The notes: generated by a model not told the origin, from the sequence alone. Numbered from the stretch's first letter, positions 8,601-33,061 are shown. The stretch: 64,000 nt of DNA from Flavobacteriales bacterium (GCA_028110365.1 JAOGVT010000002.1:19180-83179), one strand, 5' to 3'. Translations and numbers: made by a program.

Positions 8601-10403
8601 AAGCGTTCCTTCAGAAACGTAACCTTCGAGCGTTCCAGACAGTAAAACGTCTCCATAAGAATCAGTAATTGTAACTACAGCAGAATTCCATCCATCTCCG
8701 TAAGAATCATACATAGTAAAAGTTTGACAACCGTCTTCTAAACAGGCTTGAGTAGATTCAGCACTTCCAGAAAAACCACCGATACTCCATGTAATTTCTG
8801 AATCCCATGAACCACCACCTACTTGAATTGAAACAGAAGTTAAACCAGAACAGTCAATCGGATACTCACAAGAGCCATCGTCTTCTACAGCTGCAATATT
8901 ATAATTTAAAGCTAGCGTATCCATACATCCAGCAACTGGGTATAGGCAGGAGTAGTTGTCAGCCGTAGCTTCAGCATTAAAGTTCAAGGCAGTCGAATCT
9001 GTACATCCAAATACAGGGCCACAACCTTCGCCTCCAAAAGCACCTTCAAAAGGAGCACCACCAGAAATCAACACAACACCATTCACGTCAGTAATCTCCC
9101 ATGACACTTCTAGTGGCCATGAGCCAGCATCACAAGTTACATCGACACAACCTGCAGAGGAATCGTAACAAACGACTCCAGAACCAGAACTTCCTGATGC
9201 AATAGTTAATGAAACTCCATTTACAATTAAAGCAGCTCCATTCCAACCATCACCGTAAGAATCAGACATTGTTACGATAAGCGTTTCACCAGTCGTACAG
9301 TTTCCAGCACAATCGTAACCTGGAGCTGGGCCATCACCGCCACACTCACCACATTCATCAAATGCAGCACAAGTACCATCATCAAAAATCATTGATGAAT
9401 CAAAATTACACGCATTTTCATCAGTACAACCACTACACGAACTATTGTCTCCTCCACACTCACCACAATCGTCAAGTTCAGCACATGCACCATTATCGTA
9501 AATCGCTTCCGAATCGTAATTACAAGCAGTAATATCCATACATCCGTATTCACTATTCACATCAGCATTGTCATTAATCCAATCCAAAACATGAGAAACT
9601 TTAGACCATACACCAGGGTAAAGTACGTCTGCACAACCATAACCCCAACTAGTAGCACCAATTAGTAACCATCTAGAATTATCAGAACTTCGAACTACAA
9701 GAGGACCACCAGAATCACCCTGACAAGCATCTTCTCCACCATTTATAAGGTCACCCGCACATATCATTGAGGCATCAAGAGAAGTGCAAGGGTATTGTCC
9801 TGAATTACCATTCTCGTCATTTGCAGAACCACAAGCAACATCATTCTCTACAATAGGAGCTTCTACCATCTGTAAAACAGAAGCTAAACCACCACCAGAA
9901 GAGGTTGTACCCCAGCCAGTAATAACGGACATAACTCCACCGTCTTGAGCACCGGCAGCAATTTCATTTTCATCTATTAGATCTATTTTCTGAATAAATG
10001 CACTATACTCAAACTCACCATTGATTTCTACCAAAGCAAAGTCGTATGAATTTCCAGAATAATCTGGATGTACTATAATTTGATTTACAGAATAAGACTC
10101 TCCACCTGATGCAAATGATGCTGTTGCACCACAACGAATATACAAACCACTAGGGCTGTCTCCGTTTACACAGTGAGCTGCGGTTAAAACCCAAGAATCC
10201 CCAATAATAGAACCTCCACAAAACCCGCTTCCATTAGGACTAGAAGTTAAGGCTACTTGCCATGGATAATCTTTGATTTCAACATCTACACCTCCCACAA
10301 CTTTTTGCTGAGCAGAGACATTAAAAGATAAAATAAGAGTGAGCACAAAAGTTAAATTCCGGATGATTTGGAAACAATTAATTGGGGGAGTAAATATTGT
10401 CAT
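5616..10403 (-). CDS. Giant secreted S1A (trypsin-type) serine protease, paralogue A, with a Cys-rich module array, an embedded Kazal-type domain and a T9SS-CTD-like C-terminus
   Basis: 1595-aa ORF with a signal peptide (...SFNVSAQQK). The S1A motifs are VVGG (aa 35), WVLTAAHC (His77), DFALVEI (Asp121) and DACQGDSGGP (Ser231, nt 9711-9713; Asp at the position-189 equivalent). It has 10 two-Cys motifs and 5 canonical DSYGDGWN[GS] units. A Kazal-like segment spans aa 943-979. The C-terminus reads ...VLVKVINVLGQEVVV...VLFNVYNDGTVEKMVK. Confidence 0.9.
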   Translation of the reverse strand: MTIFTPPINCFQIIRNLTFVLTLILSFNVSAQQKVVGGVDVEIKDYPWQVALTSSPNGSGFCGGSIIGDSWVLTAAHCVNGDSPSGLYIRCGATASFASGGESYSVNQIIVHPDYSGNSYDFALVEINGEFEYSAFIQKIDLIDENEIAAGAQDGGVMSVITGWGTTSSGGGLASVLQMVEAPIVENDVACGSANDENGNSGQYPCTSLDASMICAGDLINGGEDACQGDSGGPLVVRSSDNSRWLLIGATSWGYGCADVLYPGVWSKVSHVLDWINDNADVNSEYGCMDITACNYDSEAIYDNGACAELDDCGECGGDNSSCSGCTDENACNFDSSMIFDDGTCAAFDECGECGGDGPAPGYDCAGNCTTGETLIVTMSDSYGDGWNGAALIVNGVSLTIASGSSGSGVVCYDSSAGCVDVTCDAGSWPLEVSWEITDVNGVVLISGGAPFEGAFGGEGCGPVFGCTDSTALNFNAEATADNYSCLYPVAGCMDTLALNYNIAAVEDDGSCEYPIDCSGLTSVSIQVGGGSWDSEITWSIGGFSGSAESTQACLEDGCQTFTMYDSYGDGWNSAVVTITDSYGDVLLSGTLEGYVSEGTLSFGLNTDEQCGPVLGCTDTLALNFDVEATSNDGSCTYPVSGCMDSLAFNYNELAVGDDGSCVYPQDCDTANSLTLMMYDSYGDGWNGNAFTASSNGQEIASATLLGSESEGVASFCLNDGCYVITVDGGSWQSEVSWDLVNQDGAVVLSGNAPYESSLALNFEGECGLIYGCTDSLALNFNPAATADDNSCTYPVVGCTDSLALNYNPDAVQDDASCEYPIDCEGLTLVVIDVTAGFYSQEVSWQLNDFPGEVGATQYCLEDGCHTFIMIDSYGDGWNGSIVTITTSTGEELLTGTLQAGYSGDMLFSLNAECGYVYGCTDPSALNFDNTATIDDGSCEYGCVCPEIYDPVCGFDGITYSSSCHASCAGVESVYAGECEIIVDPILGCTDISALNYNLAATQDDGSCEYPVNCEGYPALLVVNNASFGDEHSWSVTDESGLMLYTDGQYSDNSVVDVELCLESNTSYSIILSDSYGDGWNGGTFSILSDDLSCELASGGMEQGQEATFDFTTSCDGDNPGVDIPWEVMVTGSNHTLVIDGAAQIDLGDVEIEIGDVLGVFYSDENGDLQCGGMATWTGSTNLIAAQGDDTTTDEIDGFSSNEAFVWMVWDTSEGLAYMANAEYEAMMSNQGNYITNGISALSTLTSISSVSDQTMDMPFGWSIFSTYLTFESMDLVTLLSSIFDQIIICKNNAGAAYLPEYGFNGIGDVELGQGYQIKLRNEITITAEGEYLAPEENPTILTAGWNMIGYIRLEPADASAVLSDINSSGNLVIAKDFAGNAYLPEFNFNGIGDFVSGQGYQLKVTNDDVLNYLSNEESYRVSSIGVTNNYSSHFERALRTDNNMTVVIDDASWDVLPKDGAEIAAFDAYGTLVGSAKYTSPVTVLTVWGDDALTSSKDGLNATEVSSFKLWSNNQTNTFEVTKWVEGSSTYTTNEINVASSIVTNTSSVALISSGRVLVKVINVLGQEVVVDDSFTGEVLFNVYNDGTVEKMVK
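7059..9548 (-). repeat. In-frame module array of protease A: 10 two-Cys ~24-aa motifs (mostly in doublets) separating five blocks that each pair a DSYGDGWNG-type unit with an SW-x-SEVSW-type unit
   Basis: Read from the translation. Example motifs are FGCTDSTALNFNAEATADNYSCLYP and AGCMDTLALNYNIAAVEDDGSCEYP. Example units are TMYDSYGDGWNSAVVTITDSYGDVLLSGTL and TVDGGSWQSEVSWDLVNQDGAVVLSGNA. Confidence 0.75.
7467..7577 (-). other. Kazal-type (Kazal_2-like) serine protease inhibitor domain embedded in protease A
   Basis: aa 943-979 read CVCPEIYDPVCGFDGITYSSSCHASCAGVESVYAGEC. This has six Cys and the Y-x-P-V-C-G-x-D-G-x-T-Y core typical of Kazal domains. Confidence 0.75.
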
Positions 10404-16599: not shown

Positions 16600-17568
16600 A
16601 TGAAAAAAATTTACCTTTTTAGCATCGCACTTATAGGTGCCTTTACGATGCAAGCACAAGACTGTTCTAACCTCTTTATTTCTGAGTACGTAGAAGGTTG
16701 GAGTAACAACAAAGCAATCGAATTGTACAACCCAACCAATGAAACCATAGATTTATCAAACTATGCGCTCTCAAGATGGAGTAATGGAGGAACTACGCCA
16801 CAGAGAACTGTACTAGAAGGTGCTGTAGCACCAGGTCAAACTTTTGTAGTTGCCATTGACAAAAGAGATCCAAATGGAGAAGGTTTTGAAGCTCCTTTAT
16901 GGGATGGATGGTACTATTACACAGATAGTGTTTCGGGCTTACCAGACAGTATTTACACTGCAGATGAAGACCTTTTAGGTAAAGTTGATTTGTATATTTG
17001 CCCAAATTATGAAGATGGTACCATGTACTATAACGGTAACGATGCTGTAACTTTAGAAGACCCAAGTGGAAATGTTTTTTACGATATGTTTGGAAAAATC
17101 GGAGAAGATCCAGGTGACGGATGGGGTGATGAAATGGGCTATATTTGGACTCAAAATAAAACGTTAGTTAGAAAACCATCTGTTAAATCTGGTTTTCTTT
17201 ACGACCCAATGCAACCTTATACGTTTGACCCTTCAGTTCAGTGGGATTCACTCCCAGCGAATACATTTGCAGGACTAGGTGAACACACTTGTGATTGTGA
17301 GTCTGTAGTATCTATTAAAGAAATTCAAAATTCTGTTTCAATGTATCCAAATCCGAATTCTTCGGGACAACTTACCATTGATGCTAACATCAATTTAACT
17401 TCTATTGCTATTTATAACATCCTAGGAGAAAAAGTATTTAGCAAAAATTACGACAATTCATCTATTACAGAAACACTAACCTTAGATGCGTCAATTAAAG
17501 GATTGTTCTTTGTTGAAGTTAGACTTCAAAACAAAAAAACCATTCTTAATAAGTTACTTATAAATTAA
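16600..17568 (+). CDS. Lamin tail domain (LTD)-containing secreted protein with a T9SS type A sorting domain
   Basis: 322 aa with a signal peptide (FTMQA|QD). The LTD-like core reads LFISEYVEGWSNNKAIELYNPTNETIDLSNYAL...GNDAVTLEDPSGNVFYDMFG. The C-terminus has YPNPNSSGQLTI...IYNILGEKV...GLFFVEV. Confidence 0.75.
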   Translation: MKKIYLFSIALIGAFTMQAQDCSNLFISEYVEGWSNNKAIELYNPTNETIDLSNYALSRWSNGGTTPQRTVLEGAVAPGQTFVVAIDKRDPNGEGFEAPLWDGWYYYTDSVSGLPDSIYTADEDLLGKVDLYICPNYEDGTMYYNGNDAVTLEDPSGNVFYDMFGKIGEDPGDGWGDEMGYIWTQNKTLVRKPSVKSGFLYDPMQPYTFDPSVQWDSLPANTFAGLGEHTCDCESVVSIKEIQNSVSMYPNPNSSGQLTIDANINLTSIAIYNILGEKVFSKNYDNSSITETLTLDASIKGLFFVEVRLQNKKTILNKLLIN

Positions 17569-17570
17569 TA

Positions 17571-17599
17571 AAAAGCCCCTTGTATGGGGCTTTTTTTTT
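17571..17599 (+). terminator. Rho-independent terminator or attenuator between the LTD gene and the TonB-dependent receptor gene
   Basis: The stem agcccc(17574-17579)/ggggct(17586-17591) has a 6-nt loop and is followed by a run of 9 T. Confidence 0.7.
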
Positions 17600-17607
17600 C
17601 CTCTCTC

Positions 17608-20370
17608 ATGAAAAAAACCCTCTTCTTGTTAGTCCTAATTTATGGGATCACTCTTCAGGCTCAAGTAACCCTTAAAGGGTATGTTTTTGATAATGCTACA
17701 AACGAAACCCTAATTGGAGCTACCATAGTTTCTTCTAATGGAGCTGGTACTGTTACAGACTTTAATGGGTTTTACCAAATCTCTTTACCTCAAGGAAAAA
17801 CAGAATTGAGTGTATCTTATGTTGGATACGAAGAGTTAAAAAAAACCATTACGCTTTACAGCGATACCGAATTAAACCTATCACTTTCAAGTCAAATTTT
17901 AAATGAAGTTGAACTGGTTTCTGACATTGCACGATCTAGAGAAACGCCGGTAGCATTTTCAAACATCAGCCCAAAACAGCTTCAAGAAGAGCTTGCCGGA
18001 CAAGACATTCCTTTAATTCTCAACAGTACACCAGGAGTTTATGCCACCCAAAGTGGTGGTGGTGACGGGGATGCAAGAATTTCTATTCGTGGTTTTAACC
18101 AACGTAACGTTGCTGTTATGGTGGATGGGATTCCCATGAACGATATGGAAAATGGTTGGGTCTACTGGTCAAACTGGTTTGGCTTGGATGTAATGACCAA
18201 AACCATACAAGTACAACGTGGCTTAGGAGCCTCTAAACTAGCTATACCAGCAGTTGGAGGTACCATGAATATACTTACCAAAGGAATAGATTCTAAAAAA
18301 GGTTTAAAATTTAGTCAAGACGTTGGAAATAACGGTTATCTAAAATCCACGATTGGCTACAACAGCGGAAAACTAAAAAATGGATGGGGCTATTCTTTAG
18401 CAGCATCTTACAAAGAAAACAACGGATGGGTCGACCAAACTTGGTCTCAAGGAACATTCTATTACCTCAAAATTCAGAAAAAAATTAAAAACCACCGATT
18501 GTCTTTTACCGCTTTCGGGGCACCACAAAGCCATGGGCAACGCTCTTACAAAAAAGCAATTACCTTATATGATAAAAGTTTTGCCGCAGATCTGGGTATA
18601 GATACTACAGGCGTAGTAGGTGACTTTGGGCTTCGATACAACGAACATTGGGGAAGATTAAACAGGTACACGGTTAACTTTGATGAGAATGGAAATCCGA
18701 CCGATACAACTTTTGCGGAAAACGAAATTGTAAATTCCAAAATGAATTACTACCACAAACCTCAAATAAGTTTAAACCATCTTTGGGCGGCTAGTGAAAA
18801 ACTTGTCGTTTCAAATGTGCTCTACGTTTCGCTGGGTAATGGAGGAGGAACTGGTGCAAATCCTAGTATTTCAGCTGATAATTTTGGTGCTGATAATCAA
18901 ATTGATTTCCAAAGTATTTACGATAATAATTCGGGTAATACCAGGCATCCTTTCTTAGGAGATCTGTCTATTGATATAAACTACAGCCCAACAGAGCATA
19001 AGGCCACTCAATTTATAAGAAGCTCCATAAACAACCACCGTTGGTTTGGTTTGCTGTCAACTTACAATCACGAAACTAGTGAAGAAATTACGCTTTCTGG
19101 TGGTATCGACTTAAGACATTATACAGGAGAGCACTATCGAGAAGCATACGACTTATTAGGTGGTGATTATTACGTTGCCAACGACAACGTTGCAGCATCA
19201 GATTCATCTGCTATAATTCGTAAAGGAGACAAATTTTCTTACCATAACGATGGTATCGTAAAATGGGCTGGCGTTTTTCAACAAATGGAATACAAAGCTG
19301 GAAATTGGACCGCTTTTGTTAATGTCTCCTTATCAAATACGGGTTACAAAAGAATTGACTATTTCAGACCTTTAGATCTTGTTTTAGAAGACACAACCTA
19401 TGTTCAAGCACTTTCCTATGGTGATACCATTTCCCGAGACGGAGTAAATTATACCGTAGACTCGAAAGAAGCTCGTGCAACTGAAAGCGATTGGAAATGG
19501 ATTCCGGGCTATACACTAAAAACTGGATTTAACTACAATATTGATGAATACAACAATGCGTTCATGAATATTGGTTATCTAGAAAAAGCACCAAAATTTG
19601 GTAATATTTTCGACTTTGACAATCAGCTTTTTGCAAATATTAAAAACGAAGAAGTTTCTGCAATAGAACTAGGACATAGTTATAACAGCCCGAGGTTTAG
19701 CACAAATCTTAATCTATACCACACGCAGTGGAAAAACAAACCACAATCGGGTAGTACAATTGTAGACGGAGACCCTGTAAAATACAACATCAACGGAATT
19801 AATGCATTGCACCAAGGAATAGAAATAGATGCATCTTTTAAAATAAGTAGAGATCTAACGATCCAGGTTTTAAGTAGTATTGGAAATTGGCGTTGGACTT
19901 CTGGAGATACCATTAGAAGTTATGATGACAACAACAATTTATTGGGTGTGGATTACTTTGACGCAACTGGGGTTCATGTAGGAGATGCTGCACAGCTTCA
20001 AATTGGATCAAGTATACGATACAGTCCGCTAAAAAATGGCTACATCACACTTAAAGCCATGCACTACGATAACCACTATGCAGATTTTAATCCTTTTGAT
20101 TTAAGAGGAGGAAACGAAGGAAGAGATTCTTGGAAAATACCCGCATACGAACTCTTTGATATTCATGCAGGATATCGCTTCCAATATCAAAAAGTATTTA
20201 TTGATCTGAAACTAAACGTACTCAATGTTTTAAATACAGGTTATATCTCAGATGCTTTAAACAACGATCCTTATATATCCGGTAATCAAAATAACTTTGA
20301 CGCAGGTTCCGCTTCTGTATTCTTCGGAATGGGTAGACGATTTACCACTTCATTTAAACTCTCTTTTTAA
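17608..20370 (+). CDS. TonB-dependent receptor (CarboxypepD_reg-like N-domain, plug and barrel)
   Basis: The signal peptide is MKKTLFLLVLIYGITLQA|Q. It also has VTLKGYVFDNATNETLIGATI, the plug motif ISIRGFNQRNVAVMVDGIPMND and a C-terminal ...TTSFKLSF. The track start at 17584 lies inside the upstream terminator hairpin, so I use the ATG at 17608. Confidence 0.9.
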   Translation: MKKTLFLLVLIYGITLQAQVTLKGYVFDNATNETLIGATIVSSNGAGTVTDFNGFYQISLPQGKTELSVSYVGYEELKKTITLYSDTELNLSLSSQILNEVELVSDIARSRETPVAFSNISPKQLQEELAGQDIPLILNSTPGVYATQSGGGDGDARISIRGFNQRNVAVMVDGIPMNDMENGWVYWSNWFGLDVMTKTIQVQRGLGASKLAIPAVGGTMNILTKGIDSKKGLKFSQDVGNNGYLKSTIGYNSGKLKNGWGYSLAASYKENNGWVDQTWSQGTFYYLKIQKKIKNHRLSFTAFGAPQSHGQRSYKKAITLYDKSFAADLGIDTTGVVGDFGLRYNEHWGRLNRYTVNFDENGNPTDTTFAENEIVNSKMNYYHKPQISLNHLWAASEKLVVSNVLYVSLGNGGGTGANPSISADNFGADNQIDFQSIYDNNSGNTRHPFLGDLSIDINYSPTEHKATQFIRSSINNHRWFGLLSTYNHETSEEITLSGGIDLRHYTGEHYREAYDLLGGDYYVANDNVAASDSSAIIRKGDKFSYHNDGIVKWAGVFQQMEYKAGNWTAFVNVSLSNTGYKRIDYFRPLDLVLEDTTYVQALSYGDTISRDGVNYTVDSKEARATESDWKWIPGYTLKTGFNYNIDEYNNAFMNIGYLEKAPKFGNIFDFDNQLFANIKNEEVSAIELGHSYNSPRFSTNLNLYHTQWKNKPQSGSTIVDGDPVKYNINGINALHQGIEIDASFKISRDLTIQVLSSIGNWRWTSGDTIRSYDDNNNLLGVDYFDATGVHVGDAAQLQIGSSIRYSPLKNGYITLKAMHYDNHYADFNPFDLRGGNEGRDSWKIPAYELFDIHAGYRFQYQKVFIDLKLNVLNVLNTGYISDALNNDPYISGNQNNFDAGSASVFFGMGRRFTTSFKLSF

Positions 20371-20379
20371 TAAAAACTC

Positions 20380-22530
20380 ATGAAAAAAACAATCTATTTA
20401 TTTGCGCTTTATTGTGGTACTTTATTAGCTCAAAGCCCAAGTTATTATGAAAACCTTCAACAATTAACAGGAGATGCGCTTGAAGATGCACTTCATGAGT
20501 TGATCAAAGATCACAGTGAGTTTTCATACAGTTCGGCAAAGCAAATTCTAAAAGACAGTGACCAAGATCCGAACAATACAGACAATGTAATATTGGTCTA
20601 CAAAGAAACCTCTATTCCTAAAAGTAATTTCGCCAGCAACAATCAATCTGATTACTGGAACAGGGAGCACGTTTGGGCAAAATCGCATGGGAATTTTACC
20701 AACTATGGCGATCTAGGCGCTTACAGTGATGCACACAACCTAAAACCTTGCGATGCAAGTATAAATTCTGCAAGAGGTTACAAAGATTTCGACAATGGAG
20801 GCTCTCAAAATAACGAGGCAACAAATTGTTACGCTACAAATACAACCTGGGAGCCAGGAGACAATGTAAAAGGAGATGTTGCACGAATTATTTTTTACAT
20901 GCATACGCGTTACAGTGGAAATGGAGAGCCGAACTTAAATATCGTTGACTTTACGCCTACCTTCCCGAACTCTCAAATGGGAAAATTATCTACGCTTTTA
21001 GCATGGAACGAGTTAGACCCTGTAGATGCATTTGAAAGAAGAAGAAATGACGTGATTTACGGATGGCAAAACAACAGAAACCCTTTTGTTGATTATCCAG
21101 AATTGGCAAACAGAATATGGGGAGAAGCGCAACCAAACAGTGTTCAATTTGTAGATGTAAACCTAGGAAATGCTGCGCCTAATGAAACCGATACACAAAC
21201 TGTAAATGCAGAAATAATGTACGGAACATCTATTGAATTAGATGTCGTATTGACCTGGGGAACCTCTTGGTACAATTTAGACAATGAAGTTCAAATGACC
21301 AATGTAGATAACTTATGGTCAGCTTCAATACCTACTCAAGTTGCAGGAGCAGATGTTAAATATAAAATAGTTGCACAAGCTGGAAGCTATGAAAATACTT
21401 TTTATGGAAACTATGAAGTAACCCTTAATCCTTTTCAAGGGCAAATCACAAGCATCCAATCCATACAAGGAACAACGAACGACTCACCATTTGCTGGACA
21501 AACAGTATCCACAACAGGAATAGTAACAGGAACTTTTGGGAATAGTTTTTACATTCAAAATGGTGCAGGAATGCGTTCTGGAATATACGTTTATAATTCT
21601 GCCATTTTCCCTGAACTAGGAGACAGTGTAATCGTAACAGGTGAAATAACAGAATACTACGAATTAACTGAATTTGCTTTCCCTGACGATGTCTATATTT
21701 TAACCTCTAATAACCCGATACCAGAACCTATAGAAATAAGTACTTCGGAGTTAGCAAACGAAGATTTGGAAGGTGTGTTGGTTAAGGTATCTGACGTTAC
21801 AGTTACCTACGCTACTTTTAACTTTGATGATTACGGTGCTTGGCGAGTAAATGATGGCTCTGGTGAATGTATTATTCACAACACAGAGGGAGCATTTGAA
21901 TACCCTGCTGTAGTTGGAGAAGAAATTAGCTCAGTTACCGGTATTTGTAGTTTCAATTACGATGAGTGGAAAATTGAACTTCGGATAGAGGATGATGTAC
22001 AAGGTGGTGAAGGTAGTAACGGTCTTAACATTACAAGTGTAGAGGCGATAAACCAATCAACAATTGTGGTCTTATTTTCCAATCCTGTAGGTAGTGAAAG
22101 TGCTGAAAACACAGCTAACTATAGCATCACTAACAATGCAGTAGTTACCAGTGCGGCAAGACACCCATTTCAATCGAACAAAGTTACATTGACGGTGGAG
22201 AATATGAATGCGGGTAATTATACGCTTACTATTGAGAATGTGCAAGATGAAGAGGGTAATGTGGTTAACGAAAATGAAAACCAATTTAATTATTTGTCTG
22301 TTAACGATTCTAAAAATACGCCTCTCACAATATATCCTAACCCATCAAACGGAATCATTAGCATTGATGGATTAGAAAAAGGGGCTACTTTTGAGGTTTG
22401 CAATACACTAGGAAAAGTCATTAGACGATACAACGCTTCGGGATCAGCAGAGCATATCAACTTAAATTTAACCAATGGATTGTATTTTATTAAATACAAA
22501 TCCAACGTCAAACAAATTGTTGTAAATTAA
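20380..22530 (+). CDS. Secreted multidomain endonuclease I family nuclease with a T9SS type A sorting domain
   Basis: 716 aa with a signal peptide (TLLA|QS). The Endonuclease_1-like motifs are WNREHVWAKSHG, DAHNLKPCDASINSARG, GDVARIIFYM and NNRNPFVDYPE. A middle region resembles the OB-like module of ExeM/NucH nucleases (IQGTTNDSPFAGQTVSTTGIVTG...FYIQN...GIYVY...GDSVIVTGEITEYYELTE). The C-terminus has YPNPSNGIISI...GLYFIKY. Confidence 0.85.
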   Translation: MKKTIYLFALYCGTLLAQSPSYYENLQQLTGDALEDALHELIKDHSEFSYSSAKQILKDSDQDPNNTDNVILVYKETSIPKSNFASNNQSDYWNREHVWAKSHGNFTNYGDLGAYSDAHNLKPCDASINSARGYKDFDNGGSQNNEATNCYATNTTWEPGDNVKGDVARIIFYMHTRYSGNGEPNLNIVDFTPTFPNSQMGKLSTLLAWNELDPVDAFERRRNDVIYGWQNNRNPFVDYPELANRIWGEAQPNSVQFVDVNLGNAAPNETDTQTVNAEIMYGTSIELDVVLTWGTSWYNLDNEVQMTNVDNLWSASIPTQVAGADVKYKIVAQAGSYENTFYGNYEVTLNPFQGQITSIQSIQGTTNDSPFAGQTVSTTGIVTGTFGNSFYIQNGAGMRSGIYVYNSAIFPELGDSVIVTGEITEYYELTEFAFPDDVYILTSNNPIPEPIEISTSELANEDLEGVLVKVSDVTVTYATFNFDDYGAWRVNDGSGECIIHNTEGAFEYPAVVGEEISSVTGICSFNYDEWKIELRIEDDVQGGEGSNGLNITSVEAINQSTIVVLFSNPVGSESAENTANYSITNNAVVTSAARHPFQSNKVTLTVENMNAGNYTLTIENVQDEEGNVVNENENQFNYLSVNDSKNTPLTIYPNPSNGIISIDGLEKGATFEVCNTLGKVIRRYNASGSAEHINLNLTNGLYFIKYKSNVKQIVVN

Positions 22531-26762: not shown

Positions 26763-27467
26763 ATGATTCAAAAATTACTCGCCGTATTTCTATTACTCCT
26801 TATAGGCGCTTGCGACAATCCAAGTACATCTGTAAGCACACACAAAAAAGGCCCTAAAAACGGATTGGTTCATACCTACAATGAAGATGGAAGTATTTCG
26901 GCTTCCATAAACTATAAAAACAACCTACGCCACGGTTTAGCTTTAGACTTTTATAAAGATGGCAAGCTCAGAGCAGAAATAAACTACAAAGACAACCTAA
27001 AAGACGGATTGGCAAAATGGTACCATAAAAATGGAAACGTATACAGGACTACCTCATACAAAGACGACCAACGAAACGGTGAACAAAAAAAATATTACGA
27101 GGAAGGAGAGCTGATGTCTGAGGCGCTATTTTACCAAGATCATCCGGGAATTGGACTTAAGGAGTACAACAAATCTGGGCAAGAAAGAAAAGCCAAACCA
27201 ACATTTTCAACAAGTAACAAAGACCTGTTGGAAGATGGCACAATGCTTGTTAAAATTCAGTTATCCAACAAAGTAAAAGAGGTAAGTTTGTACCAAGGAG
27301 AACTCACAAATGAAATTTACCTGCATGAAAACCTAAAAGAAATTAACAAAACAGCCAATACTGGAATTGCAAAAATTCCACCAGGAACAAATGAAATTAC
27401 CGTGCTGGCAAAATACAAAACACGCTTCAAGAACTATCGAGTAGCAAAAGGAACTGTAAAAAGATAA
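26763..27467 (+). CDS. Lipoprotein with MORN-variant (YwqK-like) repeats
   Basis: 234 aa with the lipobox LLIGAC. The repeats are NYKNNLRHGLALDFYKDGKL, NYKDNLKDGLAKWYHKNGNV and SYKDDQRNGEQKKYYEEGEL. Confidence 0.7.
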   Translation: MIQKLLAVFLLLLIGACDNPSTSVSTHKKGPKNGLVHTYNEDGSISASINYKNNLRHGLALDFYKDGKLRAEINYKDNLKDGLAKWYHKNGNVYRTTSYKDDQRNGEQKKYYEEGELMSEALFYQDHPGIGLKEYNKSGQERKAKPTFSTSNKDLLEDGTMLVKIQLSNKVKEVSLYQGELTNEIYLHENLKEINKTANTGIAKIPPGTNEITVLAKYKTRFKNYRVAKGTVKR

Positions 27468-27470
27468 GCG

Positions 27471-28256
27471 ATGAATTTATCATTAGAAGGAAAAAGAGCC
27501 GTTGTATGCGGAAGTACGCAAGGAATAGGTAATGCAACAGCTACTGAACTAGCTTATTTGGGAGCCAGTATTACCTTGGTGGCACGTAACCAAGAAAAAT
27601 TAAAACAAGCCATGGCTGCATTAGATGTTTCAAAAGGCCAGCTGCATAATTTTATCGTAGTAGACTTTACGCAACCCGAAGATTTGAGAACAAAACTAAA
27701 AGCGTACAGCCAAGAATTTAAGGCTCATATACTCATAAATAACACGGGTGGTCCTTCAGGTGGTCCTGCCAATGCAGCACATACAGATGAATACATTCAG
27801 GCATTTACAAATCACTTAATCTGCAACCAAATACTGGTTCAGAACCTAATGGAAGGAATGAAAAGTGAAGGTTATGGCAGGATTATTAATATTATCTCTA
27901 CCTCAGTAAAACAGCCACTAAACGGTTTAGGCGTATCCAATACAATTAGAGGTGCGGTTGCAAATTGGGCAAAAACGTTATCCAATGAGCTTGGTGCTTT
28001 TAATATAACCGTAAATAATGTACTACCAGGAGCTACCAATACCGTTCGATTAAAATCGATTGTAGAAAATAAAGCTGCAAAAACAGGTCAAACGAAAGAA
28101 GCCGTTTTAGAAGCAATGAAAAATCAGGTACCGATGAAGCGTATTGCCGAAGCTCAAGAAGTCGCTAATGCAATTGCATTCTTAGCTTCACCGGCAGCCT
28201 CTTACATCAATGGAATAAATGTACCTGTAGATGGCGGTAGAACAGCTTGCCTATAG
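27471..28256 (+). CDS. SDR family oxidoreductase
   Basis: 261 aa. It has GSTQGIG (TGxxxGIG-like) and NNTG. The gaps to both neighbouring genes are 3 nt. Confidence 0.8.
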   Translation: MNLSLEGKRAVVCGSTQGIGNATATELAYLGASITLVARNQEKLKQAMAALDVSKGQLHNFIVVDFTQPEDLRTKLKAYSQEFKAHILINNTGGPSGGPANAAHTDEYIQAFTNHLICNQILVQNLMEGMKSEGYGRIINIISTSVKQPLNGLGVSNTIRGAVANWAKTLSNELGAFNITVNNVLPGATNTVRLKSIVENKAAKTGQTKEAVLEAMKNQVPMKRIAEAQEVANAIAFLASPAASYINGINVPVDGGRTACL

Positions 28257-28259
28257 ACC

Positions 28260-29702
28260 ATGGAAAAAATCGAAAATTACATTGGAGGAGAACTCCACAA
28301 ACCTTTATCCGGCAAATATTTAGACAACTACACCCCTGCCACCGGAAAAGTATATTCTCTACTTCCAGACAGTGATCAGAAAGATGTGCAAAAAGCTGTA
28401 AAAGCGGCAAAAGAAGCATTTCCGAAGTGGTCATCCCTTTCTGCGGAAAAACGTTTGGGCTATTTAATGGCAATATCACTTAAAATAGAAGAACAAATAG
28501 ACGAGCTAGCGCTTGCAGAAACAAAAGATAATGGAAAACCGCTTTGGCTCTCTAAAGCTGTAGACATACCAAGAGCAGCGTCCAATTTTAAGTTTTATGC
28601 AACTGCAATGATGCACGATAAAACAGACTGTTTTGAAATGGGAGATGAAGCACTAAATTATACGCTTCGAAAACCAATAGGAATAGCCGGCTGTATTTCG
28701 CCATGGAATTTACCCCTATACTTATTCACCTGGAAAATTGCTCCGGCATTGGCAAGCGGGAACTGCGTAGTGGCAAAACCCTCAGAAGTTACTCCAATGA
28801 CCGCTTATTTACTTTCTAAAATTTGCATAGAAGTTGGCTTACCAAAAGGCGTTTTAAACATTGTACACGGATTGGGACACAAAGTTGGCGCAGCCATAAC
28901 AGAGCATCCAGAAATTCCAGTAATCTCCTTTACAGGTGGAACAAGTACAGGCCAACAAATTGCTAAAGTAGCGGCGCCTATGTTCAAAAAACTATCGTTG
29001 GAATTAGGCGGTAAAAACCCAAATATTATATTTGCCGACTGCGACTTTGACGATGCGCTAGCTACAACAAAACGCTCCTCTTTTGCCAATCAAGGCCAAA
29101 TTTGTTTGTGTGGATCACGAATTTTTGTGCAAAGAGCCATCTATAAAAAATTTAGAGATGCATTTGTAGCTCAAACAAAAAAAATGGTAGTGGGTCATCC
29201 AATGGATGAAAAAGCAAAACTTGGAGCGGTTGTATCAAAAGAACACATGGAAAAAGTACTTTCCTATGTAGAACTAGCTCAACAAGAAGGTGGAACGATT
29301 TTGGCAGGAGGTAAAAGAGTTGTTTTAGAAGGAGCCTATACGGATGGATATTACCTAGAACCAACCATAATAGAGGGCTTACCTTACGATTGTAGAACTA
29401 ACCAAGAAGAAATTTTCGGCCCAGTAGTAACGCTCATGCCTTTTGATACCGAAGAAGAAGTTTTGGGCTACGCAAACAGCACTAAATATGGATTAGCTGC
29501 TACATTATGGACAAGTAATTTAAAAAGAGCCCACAGAATGGCTTCTAGTTTAGACACTGGAATTGTTTGGGTTAACACATGGTTGCTAAGAGATTTACGC
29601 ACGCCCTTTGGTGGTGTTAAACAATCTGGCGTTGGAAGAGAAGGTGGATTTGAAGCACTACACTTTTTTACGGAACCAAAAAATGTTTGCATTAAACTTT
29701 GA
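28260..29702 (+). CDS. NAD(P)-dependent aldehyde dehydrogenase (semialdehyde dehydrogenase-like)
   Basis: 480 aa. It has ELGGKNP, FANQGQICLCGSR (catalytic Cys) and EEIFGPV. Confidence 0.85.
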   Translation: MEKIENYIGGELHKPLSGKYLDNYTPATGKVYSLLPDSDQKDVQKAVKAAKEAFPKWSSLSAEKRLGYLMAISLKIEEQIDELALAETKDNGKPLWLSKAVDIPRAASNFKFYATAMMHDKTDCFEMGDEALNYTLRKPIGIAGCISPWNLPLYLFTWKIAPALASGNCVVAKPSEVTPMTAYLLSKICIEVGLPKGVLNIVHGLGHKVGAAITEHPEIPVISFTGGTSTGQQIAKVAAPMFKKLSLELGGKNPNIIFADCDFDDALATTKRSSFANQGQICLCGSRIFVQRAIYKKFRDAFVAQTKKMVVGHPMDEKAKLGAVVSKEHMEKVLSYVELAQQEGGTILAGGKRVVLEGAYTDGYYLEPTIIEGLPYDCRTNQEEIFGPVVTLMPFDTEEEVLGYANSTKYGLAATLWTSNLKRAHRMASSLDTGIVWVNTWLLRDLRTPFGGVKQSGVGREGGFEALHFFTEPKNVCIKL

Positions 29703-29749
29703 TGCCTAAATTGAACTAAAAAGAACCTAACTAGTGTCTTATAAATAGT

Positions 29750-30502
29750 ATGAATCTAAACCAACAACTTGATAAATTTCTACCGATCGATTTGAAACAA
29801 ATGGATCGGGTTAAGTTGTTAAAAAGAACCGACACAAAGTACCTCTTGTCTAAAACCACCTTAATCTCTTTATTGCCCGAACTTACGAAGTATTATTTCG
29901 CTTTAGAAATTCAAGGAAAAAGAGAGGCGTCTTACCAAACAGTATATTTAGATACCGAAAAAAAAGAGTATTATTTTCAGCATCATCAGGGAAAACCAAA
30001 AAGACACAAAGTCCGATTTAGAAAATACCTAGAATCTGACCTCTCTTTTTTAGAAGTAAAACTCAAAAGAAAAGGCAAAACAGACAAAAAAAGAATCGCA
30101 ACTGACTTTAGCTTTCCCTTAAAGACTAGCCACGCTTCTTTTCTACAAAAATGGGTTCCCGAAAAACCAACTGATCTAAAACAAGTATTGCAAAATACAT
30201 TTAGCCGAATCACCTTAGTACATAAAACAGATCAGGAAAGAGTGACCATAGACTTTAACCTTATATTTGCAGACACTAAAAATAAAATTGACTTGAAGGA
30301 GCCAATAATTATAGAGGTTAAACAAAGTGGTTTGAACCGAAACTCAAATATTAGTACCTTGCTTCGAGCAAATCAAATACGCCCGCAAAGGCTCAGTAAA
30401 TATTGCATTGGTTGTATTTTACTAGACAATACCCTCAAATACAACCGATTTAAAGAACGCTTACTTGAACTTAATAAGATTCAAAAAATATGGAATTCTT
30501 AG
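29750..30502 (+). CDS. VTC domain (polyphosphate polymerase-like, CYTH-type tunnel fold) protein
   Basis: 250 aa and soluble. Basic residues recur on alternating strand-like segments: RTDTKYLL, YQTVYLDTE, HKVRFRKY, FLEVKLKRKG, RITLVHKTDQERVTIDFNL and IIEVKQSG. This is the pattern of VTC/CYTH tunnels. Confidence 0.7.
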   Translation: MNLNQQLDKFLPIDLKQMDRVKLLKRTDTKYLLSKTTLISLLPELTKYYFALEIQGKREASYQTVYLDTEKKEYYFQHHQGKPKRHKVRFRKYLESDLSFLEVKLKRKGKTDKKRIATDFSFPLKTSHASFLQKWVPEKPTDLKQVLQNTFSRITLVHKTDQERVTIDFNLIFADTKNKIDLKEPIIIEVKQSGLNRNSNISTLLRANQIRPQRLSKYCIGCILLDNTLKYNRFKERLLELNKIQKIWNS

Positions 30503-31137
30503 ACGTAGAATTATTCAATCAAAAAGATTTATTTAAACTGTTTATTAGATTCCTAATAGACTTCTCGTTTACATTTGTAATTATTCGAGTTTTATATTTT
30601 GCCGCCAATAGACGAAAAGATTATTTATTTACCTTCTTCATCTTTAACGTACTTACATTCTTTATCTGCTTCTTACTCCGAAAAGTACCAATGGAACTTG
30701 GCTTTGCACTTGGTTTATTTGCGGTATTTGGTATTTTAAGATACCGTACAGAACCGATTCCCATAAAGGAGATGACGTATTTATTTATTGTGATTGGCCT
30801 GGCTATGATTAATGCGCTGGCTAATAAAAAAATATCTTGGGCAGAACTGGTTTTTGTAAATACTACTATTTTAATAGTAACATTAAGTTTCGAAAAACTC
30901 TGGTTTAACAATGAGGTACAGCAAAAAAATGTTTTATACGATCGAATAGATCTTATAAAAAGTGAAAAACGACTTGAAATGATTAGTGATTTAAGAGAAC
31001 GTTTAGGCCTAGATATTGTAAGAGTACAAATAGGTAAAATAGACTTTTTAAGAGACGTTGCCACGGTTACCATTTTCTACAAATCAACTAAAAATGAGGT
31101 TATTTGGGGTACAAATACTGTTAATGATGAAGAATAA
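30490..31137 (+). CDS. DUF4956-like integral membrane protein
   Basis: 215 aa. I read about 4 hydrophobic helices followed by a ~70-aa soluble tail. The gene overlaps the VTC gene by 13 nt. Confidence 0.65.
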   Translation: MEFLDVELFNQKDLFKLFIRFLIDFSFTFVIIRVLYFAANRRKDYLFTFFIFNVLTFFICFLLRKVPMELGFALGLFAVFGILRYRTEPIPIKEMTYLFIVIGLAMINALANKKISWAELVFVNTTILIVTLSFEKLWFNNEVQQKNVLYDRIDLIKSEKRLEMISDLRERLGLDIVRVQIGKIDFLRDVATVTIFYKSTKNEVIWGTNTVNDEE

Positions 31138-31762
31138 AATCCTTCTAGTACTGCTATGTTTAGTCCCCTTAACATCGTTTGCGCAAAACGATGATTTGGA
31201 GCTTTGGAGTTCTTTAAAATTTAGTAAAAAAATGAATTCTAAATTTAAATTTGAACTACAAGAACAAATTAGATGGGCAGACAGTCTTAGTCAATATCAA
31301 AAAAACTTCACCGAATTAGGCGTAAAATTTAAAGCACATAAATCGCATTATTTAGGTCTAAATGTTCGTTTTGTTAACGAATTTGAACAAGATAAATTCA
31401 TGCGAATAAATGCAGACCTAAACTCAGACTTTAAATTAAAAAATAGTCCTATTTCTTTTGAACAAAGACTTCGAATACAACAATCGTGGGATGCACTAGG
31501 AAAACTTGACAAAAAACAGCTGAGAGGAAAATGGGGTGTTGTTTTTAAAACAAAATTCCTTGAACCCTTTATAGCTCATGAAGTTTTTTGGAAATTAGCT
31601 GAAACAAATGAATTGAGTAAGCAAAGGTCTACCATTGGAATGGGTTGGGACATGATAGACAAACTTAAAATGAAATTATTTTTAAGAAGCCAAAAACAAT
31701 ACAATAGAAAAAATCCGGAGCAAGTAAAAATTATAGGCTTTGGGTTACACTATAAAATTTAA
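31124..31762 (+). CDS. DUF2490-like predicted outer-membrane beta-barrel protein
   Basis: The signal peptide is MMKNKILLVLLCLVPLTSFA|Q, followed by DDLELWSSLKFSKKM... and alternating amphipathic segments. The track start at 31058 has no signal peptide. The ATG at 31124 overlaps the DUF4956 stop by 14 nt. Confidence 0.55.
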   Translation: MMKNKILLVLLCLVPLTSFAQNDDLELWSSLKFSKKMNSKFKFELQEQIRWADSLSQYQKNFTELGVKFKAHKSHYLGLNVRFVNEFEQDKFMRINADLNSDFKLKNSPISFEQRLRIQQSWDALGKLDKKQLRGKWGVVFKTKFLEPFIAHEVFWKLAETNELSKQRSTIGMGWDMIDKLKMKLFLRSQKQYNRKNPEQVKIIGFGLHYKI

Positions 31763-31783
31763 GTTAAATTTAGATCGACAATT

Positions 31784-33061
31784 ATGAAAAATCTAAGCAC
31801 AATAATCCTACTTCTCGCCCCTCTACTTTTGGGTGCTCAATCTTGTGACTTACCCCAGTATTATAGCGGGTTGAATACGGGTTCAAACATGTCAATACTT
31901 CTTCATCAAGACTTTATTGCGGGTTTAGATCTTAACGCAAACGCACCCTATATAGTTGCGCTTTCAGAAAGTGGAGTTGTAGTTGGTTCTAAAAGTTTGG
32001 TGGACGAGAATGGGGCTGTTGTCTTTCAAGAAGCTATTGCGGTATGGGGAGATGATACCTCTACACAAGATGTGGTTGATGGAGCCCTATCAGGAGAAAC
32101 AATTGTACTAAAAGTAATAGACGGAGCTGAATTGTTCACCATAGATACCGATCAAATGGAAATTAGCTTTGCAGTTAACGGGTTAATTGTTGTATTAACT
32201 GGAACCATGAATTATGAGTGTACTGGAGTCGTATTGGGTTGTACTGAGTCGATTGCTTGCAACTTTAATTTAGACGCTACAGAAAATGACGGCTCGTGTG
32301 AATATGCAGTTGAATTCTATAACTGCCAAGGAATTTGCAATACAGATACGGATGAAGATGGCGTGTGTGACGAACTAGAAATTGCTGGATGTGTTGAGCC
32401 TATGGCGTGTAACTACAACGCGTTTGCTACCGATACAGTTGAAAACTGTGTGTATCCAGAACAATATCGAAACTGTGAGGGTGCGTGTGTAAGCGATCAA
32501 GATGGAGACGATATATGCGATCAAGAAGAAGTGGAAGGATGTACCAATTATTTTGCTTGTAACTACATAGCCGAGGCTACAAACGATGATGGTTCGTGTA
32601 TCGTAATTAACGCTACTATACAATACGATGCGCAAAATGGACTGCTAAGCTTAGACACAAATATAGACAGCCTTGACATTACCTGGCTTTATTACGATGC
32701 AGTGATCCCTTTTGAGCATAGCGACTCTATTTATGTATTAGAAGATGGCGTTTATGGAGTGTTGGTTTTTGACCCTGAAAATGATTGTGGTACTTCAGAT
32801 ACAATTCATATTAATGTGGTTGACTTGAATCAAATTAGCCAACCTAAAATACGTATTTACCCAAATCCTGCAATTTCTATTTTAAACATTGAATTAAATA
32901 AAGAAAGTGAGCTCGCGATATTTAATTCTAATGGAGCAGAAATGTATCGTACAAAAACACGAGAAACAGCTGTTAACGTAGCTTATTACCCATCGGGAAT
33001 CTACTTTATTAAACTAGTACAAAACAACAATCGAATTGTTTATCCGTGGGTAAAAGAATAA
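31784..33061 (+). CDS. Secreted T9SS cargo protein sharing modules with the giant proteases (VWGDD domain, 3 two-Cys motifs, 2 acidic Cys loops)
   Basis: 425 aa with a signal peptide (LLLGA|QS). The N-domain reads SNMSILL...VVVGSKS...IAVWGDDTSTQDVVDG. The two-Cys motifs are LGCTESIACNFNLDATENDGSCEY, AGCVEPMACNYNAFATDTVENCVYP and EGCTNYFACNYIAEATNDDGSCIV. The C-terminus has IYPNPAISILNI...GIYFIKL. Confidence 0.8.
   Translation: MKNLSTIILLLAPLLLGAQSCDLPQYYSGLNTGSNMSILLHQDFIAGLDLNANAPYIVALSESGVVVGSKSLVDENGAVVFQEAIAVWGDDTSTQDVVDGALSGETIVLKVIDGAELFTIDTDQMEISFAVNGLIVVLTGTMNYECTGVVLGCTESIACNFNLDATENDGSCEYAVEFYNCQGICNTDTDEDGVCDELEIAGCVEPMACNYNAFATDTVENCVYPEQYRNCEGACVSDQDGDDICDQEEVEGCTNYFACNYIAEATNDDGSCIVINATIQYDAQNGLLSLDTNIDSLDITWLYYDAVIPFEHSDSIYVLEDGVYGVLVFDPENDCGTSDTIHINVVDLNQISQPKIRIYPNPAISILNIELNKESELAIFNSNGAEMYRTKTRETAVNVAYYPSGIYFIKLVQNNNRIVYPWVKE

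Follow-up and report, generated by a model that had tools for sequence, protein, structure and literature searches.

A VTC-DUF4956 gene pair with a DUF2490 outer-membrane barrel in a Flavobacteriales bacterium: a candidate polyphosphate-synthesizing system of the bacterial envelope

In a stretch of 64,000 nucleotides (nt) from a Flavobacteriales bacterium (GCA_028110365.1 JAOGVT010000002.1:19180-83179), here called the window, four genes on the plus strand span positions 29750-33061. They encode a VTC-domain protein, a DUF4956 membrane protein, a DUF2490 barrel protein and a protein carrying the sorting tail of the type IX secretion system (T9SS). An earlier note, made from the sequence of the window, had described them as a candidate envelope-spanning polyphosphate (polyP) system. 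The analysis presented here follows up this proposal. The calls of open reading frames (ORFs) and the Pfam matches are as follows:

29750..30502, plus strand: VTC-domain protein, 250 amino acids (Pfam VTC PF09359, E=2.4e-26)
30490..31137, plus strand: DUF4956 inner-membrane protein, 215 amino acids (Pfam PF16316, E=7.5e-52)
31124..31762, plus strand: DUF2490 outer-membrane beta-barrel (predicted), 212 amino acids from ATG (Pfam PF10677, E=1.1e-16)
31784..33061, plus strand: T9SS-secreted protein, 425 amino acids (Por_Secre_tail PF18962, E=1.3e-10)

The VTC and DUF4956 genes overlap by 13 nt and the DUF4956 and DUF2490 genes by 14 nt, and 21 nt separate DUF2490 from the T9SS gene. This is the layout given in the earlier note, whose further statements, that no hairpin lies in the 21-nt gap and that the products belong to the four families named, also agree with our results: no terminator-like site was predicted on the plus strand between 29700 and 33100, and the Pfam calls for all four genes exceed the curated cut-offs. 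NCBIfam added nothing for the VTC, DUF4956 and DUF2490 proteins, and an Rfam scan of the whole window for regulatory RNA matched no family. A sigma-70 promoter scan of the window was set aside as uninformative, the host group being Bacteroidota. The longest ORF of the DUF2490 gene begins at a TTG at 31058; the ATG start giving 212 residues agrees with the starts of the homologs. The ATG at 29750 is the real start of the 250-residue VTC protein in the window, because in-frame stop codons at 29717-29719 and 29732-29734 exclude a start giving 266 residues. The closest genome is that of the Flavobacteriales metagenome-assembled genome UBA6772, and the same locus was found again on many seawater metagenome contigs. 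In loci L087-L090 (8609-9409) the VTC protein as called in the metagenomes has 266 residues and starts at the stop codon of an aldehyde dehydrogenase (ALDH) gene.

The VTC protein matches PF09359 with 93.2 bits (cut-off 23) over profile positions 1-232 of 235. By Pfam it consists of the VTC domain only, without the N-terminal SPX domain and without the C-terminal DUF202 transmembrane domain. The basic motifs TKYLL, KVRFRKY, EVKLKRKG and EVKQSG, which had been read as those of polyP polymerase domains, are found in its translation, and its product name at NCBI is 'polyphosphate polymerase domain-containing protein'. For the comparison with yeast it should be noted that direct searches missed Vtc4: the VTC protein had no match in the Protein Data Bank (PDB) by phmmer, and Vtc4 was not among the PDB matches of a narrow Flavobacteriales VTC profile. 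Therefore a verified sequence of the Vtc4 catalytic domain (100% identical to 3G3Q_A and 8I6V_E residues 191-481) was used with hhalign, and then a cross-phylum VTC profile was built. The global mode of hhalign gave a meaningless alignment, which was not used. The two top PDB matches of the cross-phylum profile were Vtc4 (E=0.0043) and Vtc2 (E=0.0075), both in the same residue register.

In a cryo-EM study nine residues of Vtc4 were found to bind the triphosphate or Mn2+, and their mutation lowers polyP in yeast (bioRxiv 10.1101/2023.01.27.525886). Eight of the nine are identical in the window protein and invariant over Bacteroidota, Deinococcota and Alphaproteobacteria, namely K200 (K30 in the window protein), R264 (R89), R266 (R91), K281 (K104), R361 (R153), E426 (E189), S457 (S216) and K458 (K217). 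The ninth, Y359, corresponds to F151; Bacteroidota have Phe at this position, Deinococcus has Cys, and alphaproteobacteria keep Tyr. Proper alignment thus bears out that the conserved tunnel residues are present. The inactive Vtc2/3 have Ile or Leu in place of K458, a residue essential for polymerisation (bioRxiv 10.1101/2023.01.27.525886), while the corresponding Lys of AtTTM3 is dispensable for hydrolysis (PMC4641920). In TTM hydrolases four basic residues of the Vtc4 exit path are replaced by glutamates, which form a second metal site (PMC4641920). Three of these four positions are basic in the window protein as they are in Vtc4 (R26, K113/R115 and K191). By this comparison of catalytic and exit-path residues the VTC protein is polymerase-like with two departures, D28 and F151. 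As far as can be judged from sequence, it is a candidate polymerase of the Vtc4 type, a stand-alone cytoplasmic triphosphate-tunnel enzyme.

The DUF4956 protein matches its family with 175.9 bits and contains a core, G..LGLFA.FGI.RYRT...KE.TYLF, that is near-invariant over 79 sequences. Its AlphaFold2 (AF2) model, made from a shallow alignment, is poor (pLDDT 56), and because of this low confidence only the secondary structure, five helices followed by a beta-alpha-beta-beta domain, was taken from it. The protein has four to five hydrophobic helices and a C-terminal beta-alpha-beta-beta domain, a layout that agrees with the four transmembrane segments and ACT-like domain described for a Gram-positive homolog (bioRxiv 10.1101/2024.04.20.589940). 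Pfam and the predicted helices are both in keeping with the multi-pass membrane protein that had been proposed.

For the genomic context, one genome per species was scanned, which gave 590 VTC relatives, and the best 80 loci (L numbers), nearly all from Flavobacteriales, were analysed. In all 80 the VTC and DUF4956 genes are direct neighbours with the same orientation, and they overlap in 74 by longest-ORF calls, which possibly overstate the length of the overlap. Locus L001 (79% VTC identity) shows complete synteny with the window. Locus L002 (61% VTC identity) has the order MORN-VTC-DUF4956-DUF2490-T9SS homolog-IleRS (isoleucyl-tRNA synthetase) and is without the short-chain dehydrogenase/reductase (SDR) and ALDH genes that lie upstream in the window. 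Within this lineage DUF4956 is better conserved (88% and 85% identity in L001 and L002) than VTC, and beyond it the two proteins are similarly conserved. The gene following DUF4956 is lpxK in 42 loci. A gene of ~340 codons after DUF4956 was considered as an alternative partner and rejected: it is LpxK, and its position is plain clade synteny.

Loci from distant phyla came from a tblastn search of plasmids. Deinococcus taeanensis has the order CotH-VTC-DUF4956, and in Deinococcus sp. QL22 VTC-DUF4956 lies beside an acid phosphatase and phnDCE. On megaplasmids of alphaproteobacteria the order is inverted: in Aminobacter and Shinella it is DUF4956-VTC-phytase-like esterase, with the overlap retained, and Nitratireductor has DUF4956-VTC-PiT phosphate transporter-phytase-like esterase. 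In Pseudoalteromonas a phosphate-selective porin of the OprO/P family (E=2.4e-47) begins 1 nt after DUF4956. This last case calls for caution since VTC is present there only as a C-terminal remnant: on the megaplasmid of Pseudoalteromonas sp. CuT4-3 (L081, 5147-7525) it is an ORF of 104 residues behind a gene for a lamin-tail-domain (LTD) protein, and the DUF4956 and porin genes are intact and tightly spaced. The VTC-DUF4956 pair is the core of the module, and the pairing is obligate across phyla. That the two genes are conserved together elsewhere, as the proposal implied, holds for the 80 loci and also for Deinococcus, Aminobacter, Shinella and Nitratireductor.

The DUF2490 protein matches PF10677 with 61.6 bits (cut-off 29.8) and begins with a Sec signal peptide, a hydrophobic helix of residues 2-19 ending SFA|QN. 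Its AF2 model (pLDDT 79.5, pTM 0.72) has the signal helix and 11 antiparallel strands, and a Foldseek search with it returned membrane barrels only. The best superpositions were with FapF (TM-score 0.51-0.55), PcoB (0.48), the KdgM-family protein VhGalP (0.47) and the PelB barrel. The strands alternate, with a hydrophobic outer face and a lumen holding 22 K/R versus 11 D/E, and many of the basic lumen residues are invariant. The C-terminus is ...HYKI in the window protein, the family consensus being ...HYKF. Model, structural matches and strand alternation agree in making this protein the signal-peptide-bearing outer-membrane barrel that had been predicted, and published analyses at the level of the family describe DUF2490 proteins in the same way. 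In TCDB they form a broad family of putative porins (1.B.81) with an established function for no member (PMC4827864).

A DUF2490 gene lies near the pair in 11 of the 80 loci, directly after DUF4956 in 10 and two genes further in L071. On a neighbour-joining tree of VTC the loci bearing it make up most of the deep branches and fall into five lineages with different flanking genes (the window with L001 and L002; L022 and L071; L046; L050, L054 and L072; L027, L041 and L064). One large Crocinitomicaceae clade is without it. DUF2490 is, by its spread over deep branches with differing flanks, an old, recurrent and dispensable partner. Adjacent DUF4956 and DUF2490 genes are also found in Bacteroides thetaiotaomicron (BT3498-99 in a table of the iron stimulon; PMC10434189). 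The OprO/P porin that holds the position of DUF2490 in Pseudoalteromonas is unrelated to it, and a tblastn search of plasmids with DUF2490 gave no match. What the earlier note had taken for the third member of the system is a recurrent partner in an accessory role. In four loci (L027, L050, L054, L072) ispF and two large genes resembling the T9SS components PorV and PorU, a likeness judged by eye from sequence without Pfam, lie on the opposite strand and converge on the operon end downstream of DUF2490.

The gene order might in part be accidental, in that VTC-DUF4956 alone would be the functional unit and DUF2490, the T9SS protein and the upstream genes mere neighbours. Such a view could point to the breadth of the porin family, to the 42 loci in which lpxK follows DUF4956, and to the fact that the T9SS protein and the MORN protein are kept only in L001 and L002, and SDR with ALDH only in L001. 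We consider it very improbable, however, because DUF2490 comes after DUF4956 in five deep lineages of VTC with different flanks and again in Bacteroides, its reading frame in the window begins ahead of the DUF4956 stop, and a non-homologous phosphate porin occupies the same slot in Pseudoalteromonas.

The interpretation that we tentatively prefer, while putting its chances somewhat short of even, is that the cluster is the bacterial equivalent of the polyP polymerase VTC of eukaryotes, put together from non-homologous parts of the envelope, with a polymerase docked on DUF4956, its product passing across the inner membrane, and DUF2490 providing a further route where present. Bound to DUF4956 on the cytoplasmic side of the inner membrane, the soluble VTC tunnel enzyme would polymerise polyP from the gamma-phosphate of ATP, with E189 holding Mn2+ and K30, R89, R91, K104, R153, S216 and K217 holding the triphosphate. 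The growing chain would exit via a basic path (R26, K113/R115, R164 and K191) and enter a conduit that DUF4956, probably oligomeric, would form and that would lead to the periplasm. In the outer membrane the basic lumen of DUF2490 could then serve as a route for the anionic polymer or for its phosphate products. In favour of this interpretation we count the Pfam scores of the three proteins, the conserved catalytic and exit-path residues, the constant pairing of VTC and DUF4956 with its overlap, the barrel fold and basic lumen of DUF2490 and its repeated linkage to the pair, the OprO/P porin of Pseudoalteromonas, and the phosphorus-handling genes that flank the pair in other phyla. We infer the enzymatic activity, the physical coupling of VTC to DUF4956 and the outward flux from the features described above, and a channel function of DUF4956 from its genomic context alone.

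Several findings weigh against this interpretation. In the bacterial VTC proteins examined, position 28 is always Asp or Glu, where Vtc4 has Thr198; D28 (codon at 29831-29833 of the window) corresponds to Glu4 of the acidic patch of TTM hydrolases. The second departure, Phe for Y359 in Bacteroidota, is of the kind that lowers polyP in yeast when introduced as Y359F (bioRxiv 10.1101/2023.01.27.525886). The direct alignments with Vtc4 are statistically weak (E ~6e-4 and ~4e-3), so that homology to Vtc4 rests mainly on the Pfam model. A literature search found no activity reported for any bacterial VTC-domain protein nor, as the earlier note had stated, an experimentally defined function for the VTC-DUF4956 pairing. 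The 79-sequence alignment of DUF4956 showed no similarity to verified Vtc1/DUF202 (hhalign probability 0.2%, E=0.27). On this result DUF4956 was rejected as a diverged form of Vtc1, and the comparison with the yeast complex's own membrane subunits, drawn in the earlier note, does not extend to homology. Together with the poor model this makes the channel role of DUF4956 a conjecture. In ~85% of the loci sampled no DUF2490 gene lies near the pair, and passage through the outer membrane can therefore not be obligatory. Finally, the polyP of a homolog from the Gram-positive S. intermedius has been suggested to stay in the cytoplasm (bioRxiv 10.1101/2024.04.20.589940).

The acidic residue at position 28 and the Phe in place of Y359 would also suit a system working in the opposite direction, in which DUF2490 admits short-chain polyP or pyrophosphate, DUF4956 carries it inward and the VTC protein acts as a polyphosphatase or phosphotransferase. 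Indeed, many enzymes of the TTM family are tripolyphosphatases or polyphosphatases (PMC4641920), phosphorus-scavenging genes are neighbours of the pair in other phyla, and use of exogenous polyP for growth has been described for an archaeon (Haloferax), in a paper that names no gene for the degrading enzyme (PMC13318637). Nevertheless, import appears improbable to us: the other three positions of the acidic patch are basic and polymerase-like, the equivalent of K458, needed for polymerisation and dispensable for hydrolysis by AtTTM3, is invariant, and the family is Pfam VTC rather than CYTH.

A different objection concerns the destination of the product. PolyP could remain in the cytoplasm as a store, with DUF4956 as an anchor or as a regulator acting via its ACT-like domain and DUF2490 as an inward porin for phosphate or other anions, like OprP/OprO of Pseudomonas. 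The S. intermedius preprint argues for cytoplasmic polyP and for an ACT-like domain at the C-terminus of DUF4956 (bioRxiv 10.1101/2024.04.20.589940). The catalytic residues fit storage equally well, most loci do without DUF2490, and in other phyla the pair is flanked by phosphorus genes (PiT, PhnDCE, acid phosphatase, phytase-like esterases) that, like the OprO/P porin, serve uptake and scavenging. The direction of flux cannot be read from such neighbours, however, since the VTC genes of yeast are phosphate-regulated and are themselves phosphate-starvation genes. A simple anchor, moreover, would need neither the near-invariant multi-helix core of DUF4956 nor a strict translational coupling kept across phyla, and the CotH kinases and outer-membrane barrels in the same operons point to an extracytoplasmic end point. 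Since in addition the homologous yeast enzyme requires coupled translocation (bioRxiv 10.1101/2023.01.27.525886; PMC4641920), we regard storage without export as rather unlikely.

The CotH kinases just mentioned are a recurrent fourth partner outside the window and lie in the same operon as the VTC module in L041, L064, L046 and L071, all of which bear DUF2490, and also in Deinococcus. In the four L loci they carry a T9SS tail or a lipoprotein signal and are on this account extracytoplasmic. Gram-positive pel operons, too, are accompanied by cotH, VTC and DUF4956 (PMC7112168; bioRxiv 10.1101/2024.04.20.589940). Exported polyP might thus serve CotH kinases as phosphoryl donor or scaffold, or matrix polymers such as Pel, the CotH of the window having been lost or being encoded elsewhere. 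This is in our opinion decidedly improbable, as most of the sampled VTC-DUF4956 loci are without a nearby CotH and none is present in the 64-kb window, where phmmer with four CotH proteins matched the shared T9SS tail alone. We also know of no CotH that uses polyP. That the T9SS protein of the cluster is a hidden CotH was rejected by phmmer and Pfam. In its fullest form the preferred interpretation would amount to an envelope-spanning secretion of polyP, the product being used outside the cytoplasm, for example as a donor for CotH, or released into the marine phosphorus cycle. The former use would give secreted kinases, which otherwise have no ATP available, a source of phosphoryl groups and energy. 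We assign secretion of this kind a low probability.

Other extracytoplasmic partners recur as well. Directly upstream of VTC a small lipoprotein resembling prealbumin/CarboxypepD_reg is encoded in L027, L046, L050, L054, L071 and L072 and is lacking in the window. Ahead of this lipoprotein there is often a DUF4907 protein and, in L050, a tandem of four T9SS proteins. Farther upstream in the window (16600-22530, plus strand) three successive genes encode an LTD protein, a TonB-dependent receptor and an Endonuclease I, the first and the last with a T9SS tail; as a cluster they may serve the scavenging of nucleic acids outside the cell. LTD domains are also found on the CotH proteins of L046 and L071 and beside DUF4956 in Pseudoalteromonas.

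The fourth gene of the cluster encodes a protein with the signal peptide MKNLSTIILLLAPLLLGAQS in its translation and a sorting tail that matches TIGR04183 (E=6e-10) in addition to PF18962. It is built from an orphan N-terminal domain, three Cys-rich repeats with Asp-rich spacers and the Por_Secre_tail, which is all that Pfam recognised; the N-terminal domain matches nothing. Among the sampled loci homologs occur only in L001 and L002. Two genes on the minus strand (951-5510 and 5616-10403) encode proteins of ~1500 residues with an N-terminal trypsin domain, one of them also with a Kazal-like motif, and both carry many 'C..ACN[YF]N..A..DGSC' Cys-rich repeats, the same as in the T9SS protein and matched by no Pfam model. 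The repeats are generic surface-protein repeats. The assignment to the T9SS, based on signal peptide and sorting tail, is thus confirmed, but the protein is a lineage-specific neighbour whose membership in the system, as the earlier note had it, is doubtful.

Three genes precede the VTC gene. They are spaced by 3-nt gaps, and the gap from ALDH to VTC is 47 nt:

26763..27467, plus strand: MORN_2-repeat lipoprotein, 234 amino acids (Pfam MORN_2, E=2.6e-17; lipobox LIGAC in the translation)
27471-29702, plus strand: SDR and ALDH genes, between the MORN lipoprotein and VTC

In L002 (6178-7738) the MORN gene directly precedes VTC, whereas SDR and ALDH intervene in the window and in L001. These two genes are a lineage-specific two-gene insertion. 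Since the otherwise syntenic L002 does without them, they have no functional place in the module and were rejected as parts of the system. The top NCBIfam match of the ALDH is 2-hydroxymuconic semialdehyde dehydrogenase, below the cut-off of that family. The MORN lipoprotein, conserved only in the closest relatives, is possibly a peripheral companion.

According to current accounts, polyP synthesis in bacteria is a matter of PPK1 and PPK2, and VTC is a eukaryotic invention (PMC13318637). It was already known that the families considered here are annotated and that VTC-DUF4956 pairs occur in Gram-positive pel loci. New are the case for a polymerase at the level of residues, the obligate pairing across phyla, the lack of homology between DUF4956 and Vtc1, an outer-membrane barrel that recurs beside the pair and has OprO/P as its positional analogue, and the link to CotH in Bacteroidota and Deinococcus. 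If the preferred interpretation is correct, there would be a third bacterial route to polyP. Translocation coupled to synthesis would then have evolved with different membrane parts, and a system of two or three proteins would be a simple model for studying the coupling. There would also be a genetic handle on periplasmic, surface and released polyP in abundant marine Flavobacteriales and in gut Bacteroides, and a testable context for the unexplained secreted CotH kinases. If the system serves cytoplasmic storage or uptake instead, it would be less surprising, though still a widespread uncharacterised phosphate system.

Compared with known systems, the window proteins have in common with PPK1 and PPK2 that they presumably make polyP from a nucleoside triphosphate. 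The latter have an unrelated fold, act in the cytoplasm and have no coupled component in the inner or outer membrane. With the tripolyphosphatases of the TTM/CYTH type (E. coli YgiF, AtTTM3, C. thermocellum TTM) the VTC protein has the tunnel fold and the acidic residue equivalent to Glu4 in common. In contrast to them it is without the other three residues of the acidic patch, keeps the polymerase-specific Lys and belongs to Pfam VTC and not to CYTH.

For the barrel two comparisons can be made. OprP and OprO (Porin_O_P), which are selective for phosphate and for pyrophosphate/polyphosphate, are also outer-membrane barrels with a basic interior, but DUF2490 is unrelated to them, is much smaller (~11-12 strands, ~190 mature residues), and OprP/O act in uptake. 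The best structural matches of the DUF2490 model are small 12-stranded channels, namely the KdgM/NanC family (VhGalP), FapF and the PelB barrel. In the KdgM family anionic oligomers are conducted through a basic pore. There is, however, no sequence similarity between these proteins and DUF2490 (8-12% identity), and TM-scores of 0.46-0.55 at such identities indicate a shared architecture, not membership in a family.

The cotH-VTC-DUF4956 genes of Gram-positive pel loci contain the same pair, described with the help of AF2 as a catalytically competent tunnel enzyme and a protein with four transmembrane segments and an ACT-like domain (PMC7112168; bioRxiv 10.1101/2024.04.20.589940). The window differs in being without CotH, pel genes and DUF4832 and in adding the DUF2490 barrel, which is specific to diderms. 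Related Bacteroidota loci come closer in that they do carry a CotH, exported by the T9SS. Yeast VTC (Vtc4/Vtc3/Vtc1; PDB 3G3Q, 7YTJ, 8I6V) resembles the window system in the Pfam VTC tunnel domain, in eight of nine site residues including K458, in an exit path that is basic at three of the four positions compared, in the pairing of a catalytic subunit with a membrane protein and in the genomic association with phosphate metabolism. The differences are that the enzyme of the window has neither an SPX nor a fused transmembrane domain, that DUF4956 is not homologous to Vtc1/DUF202, that Phe replaces Y359 in the window and in Bacteroidota, and that Asp or Glu replaces T198. The destination of the product would differ, too, being the periplasm or the exterior rather than the vacuole, and to this the window adds a barrel in the outer membrane.

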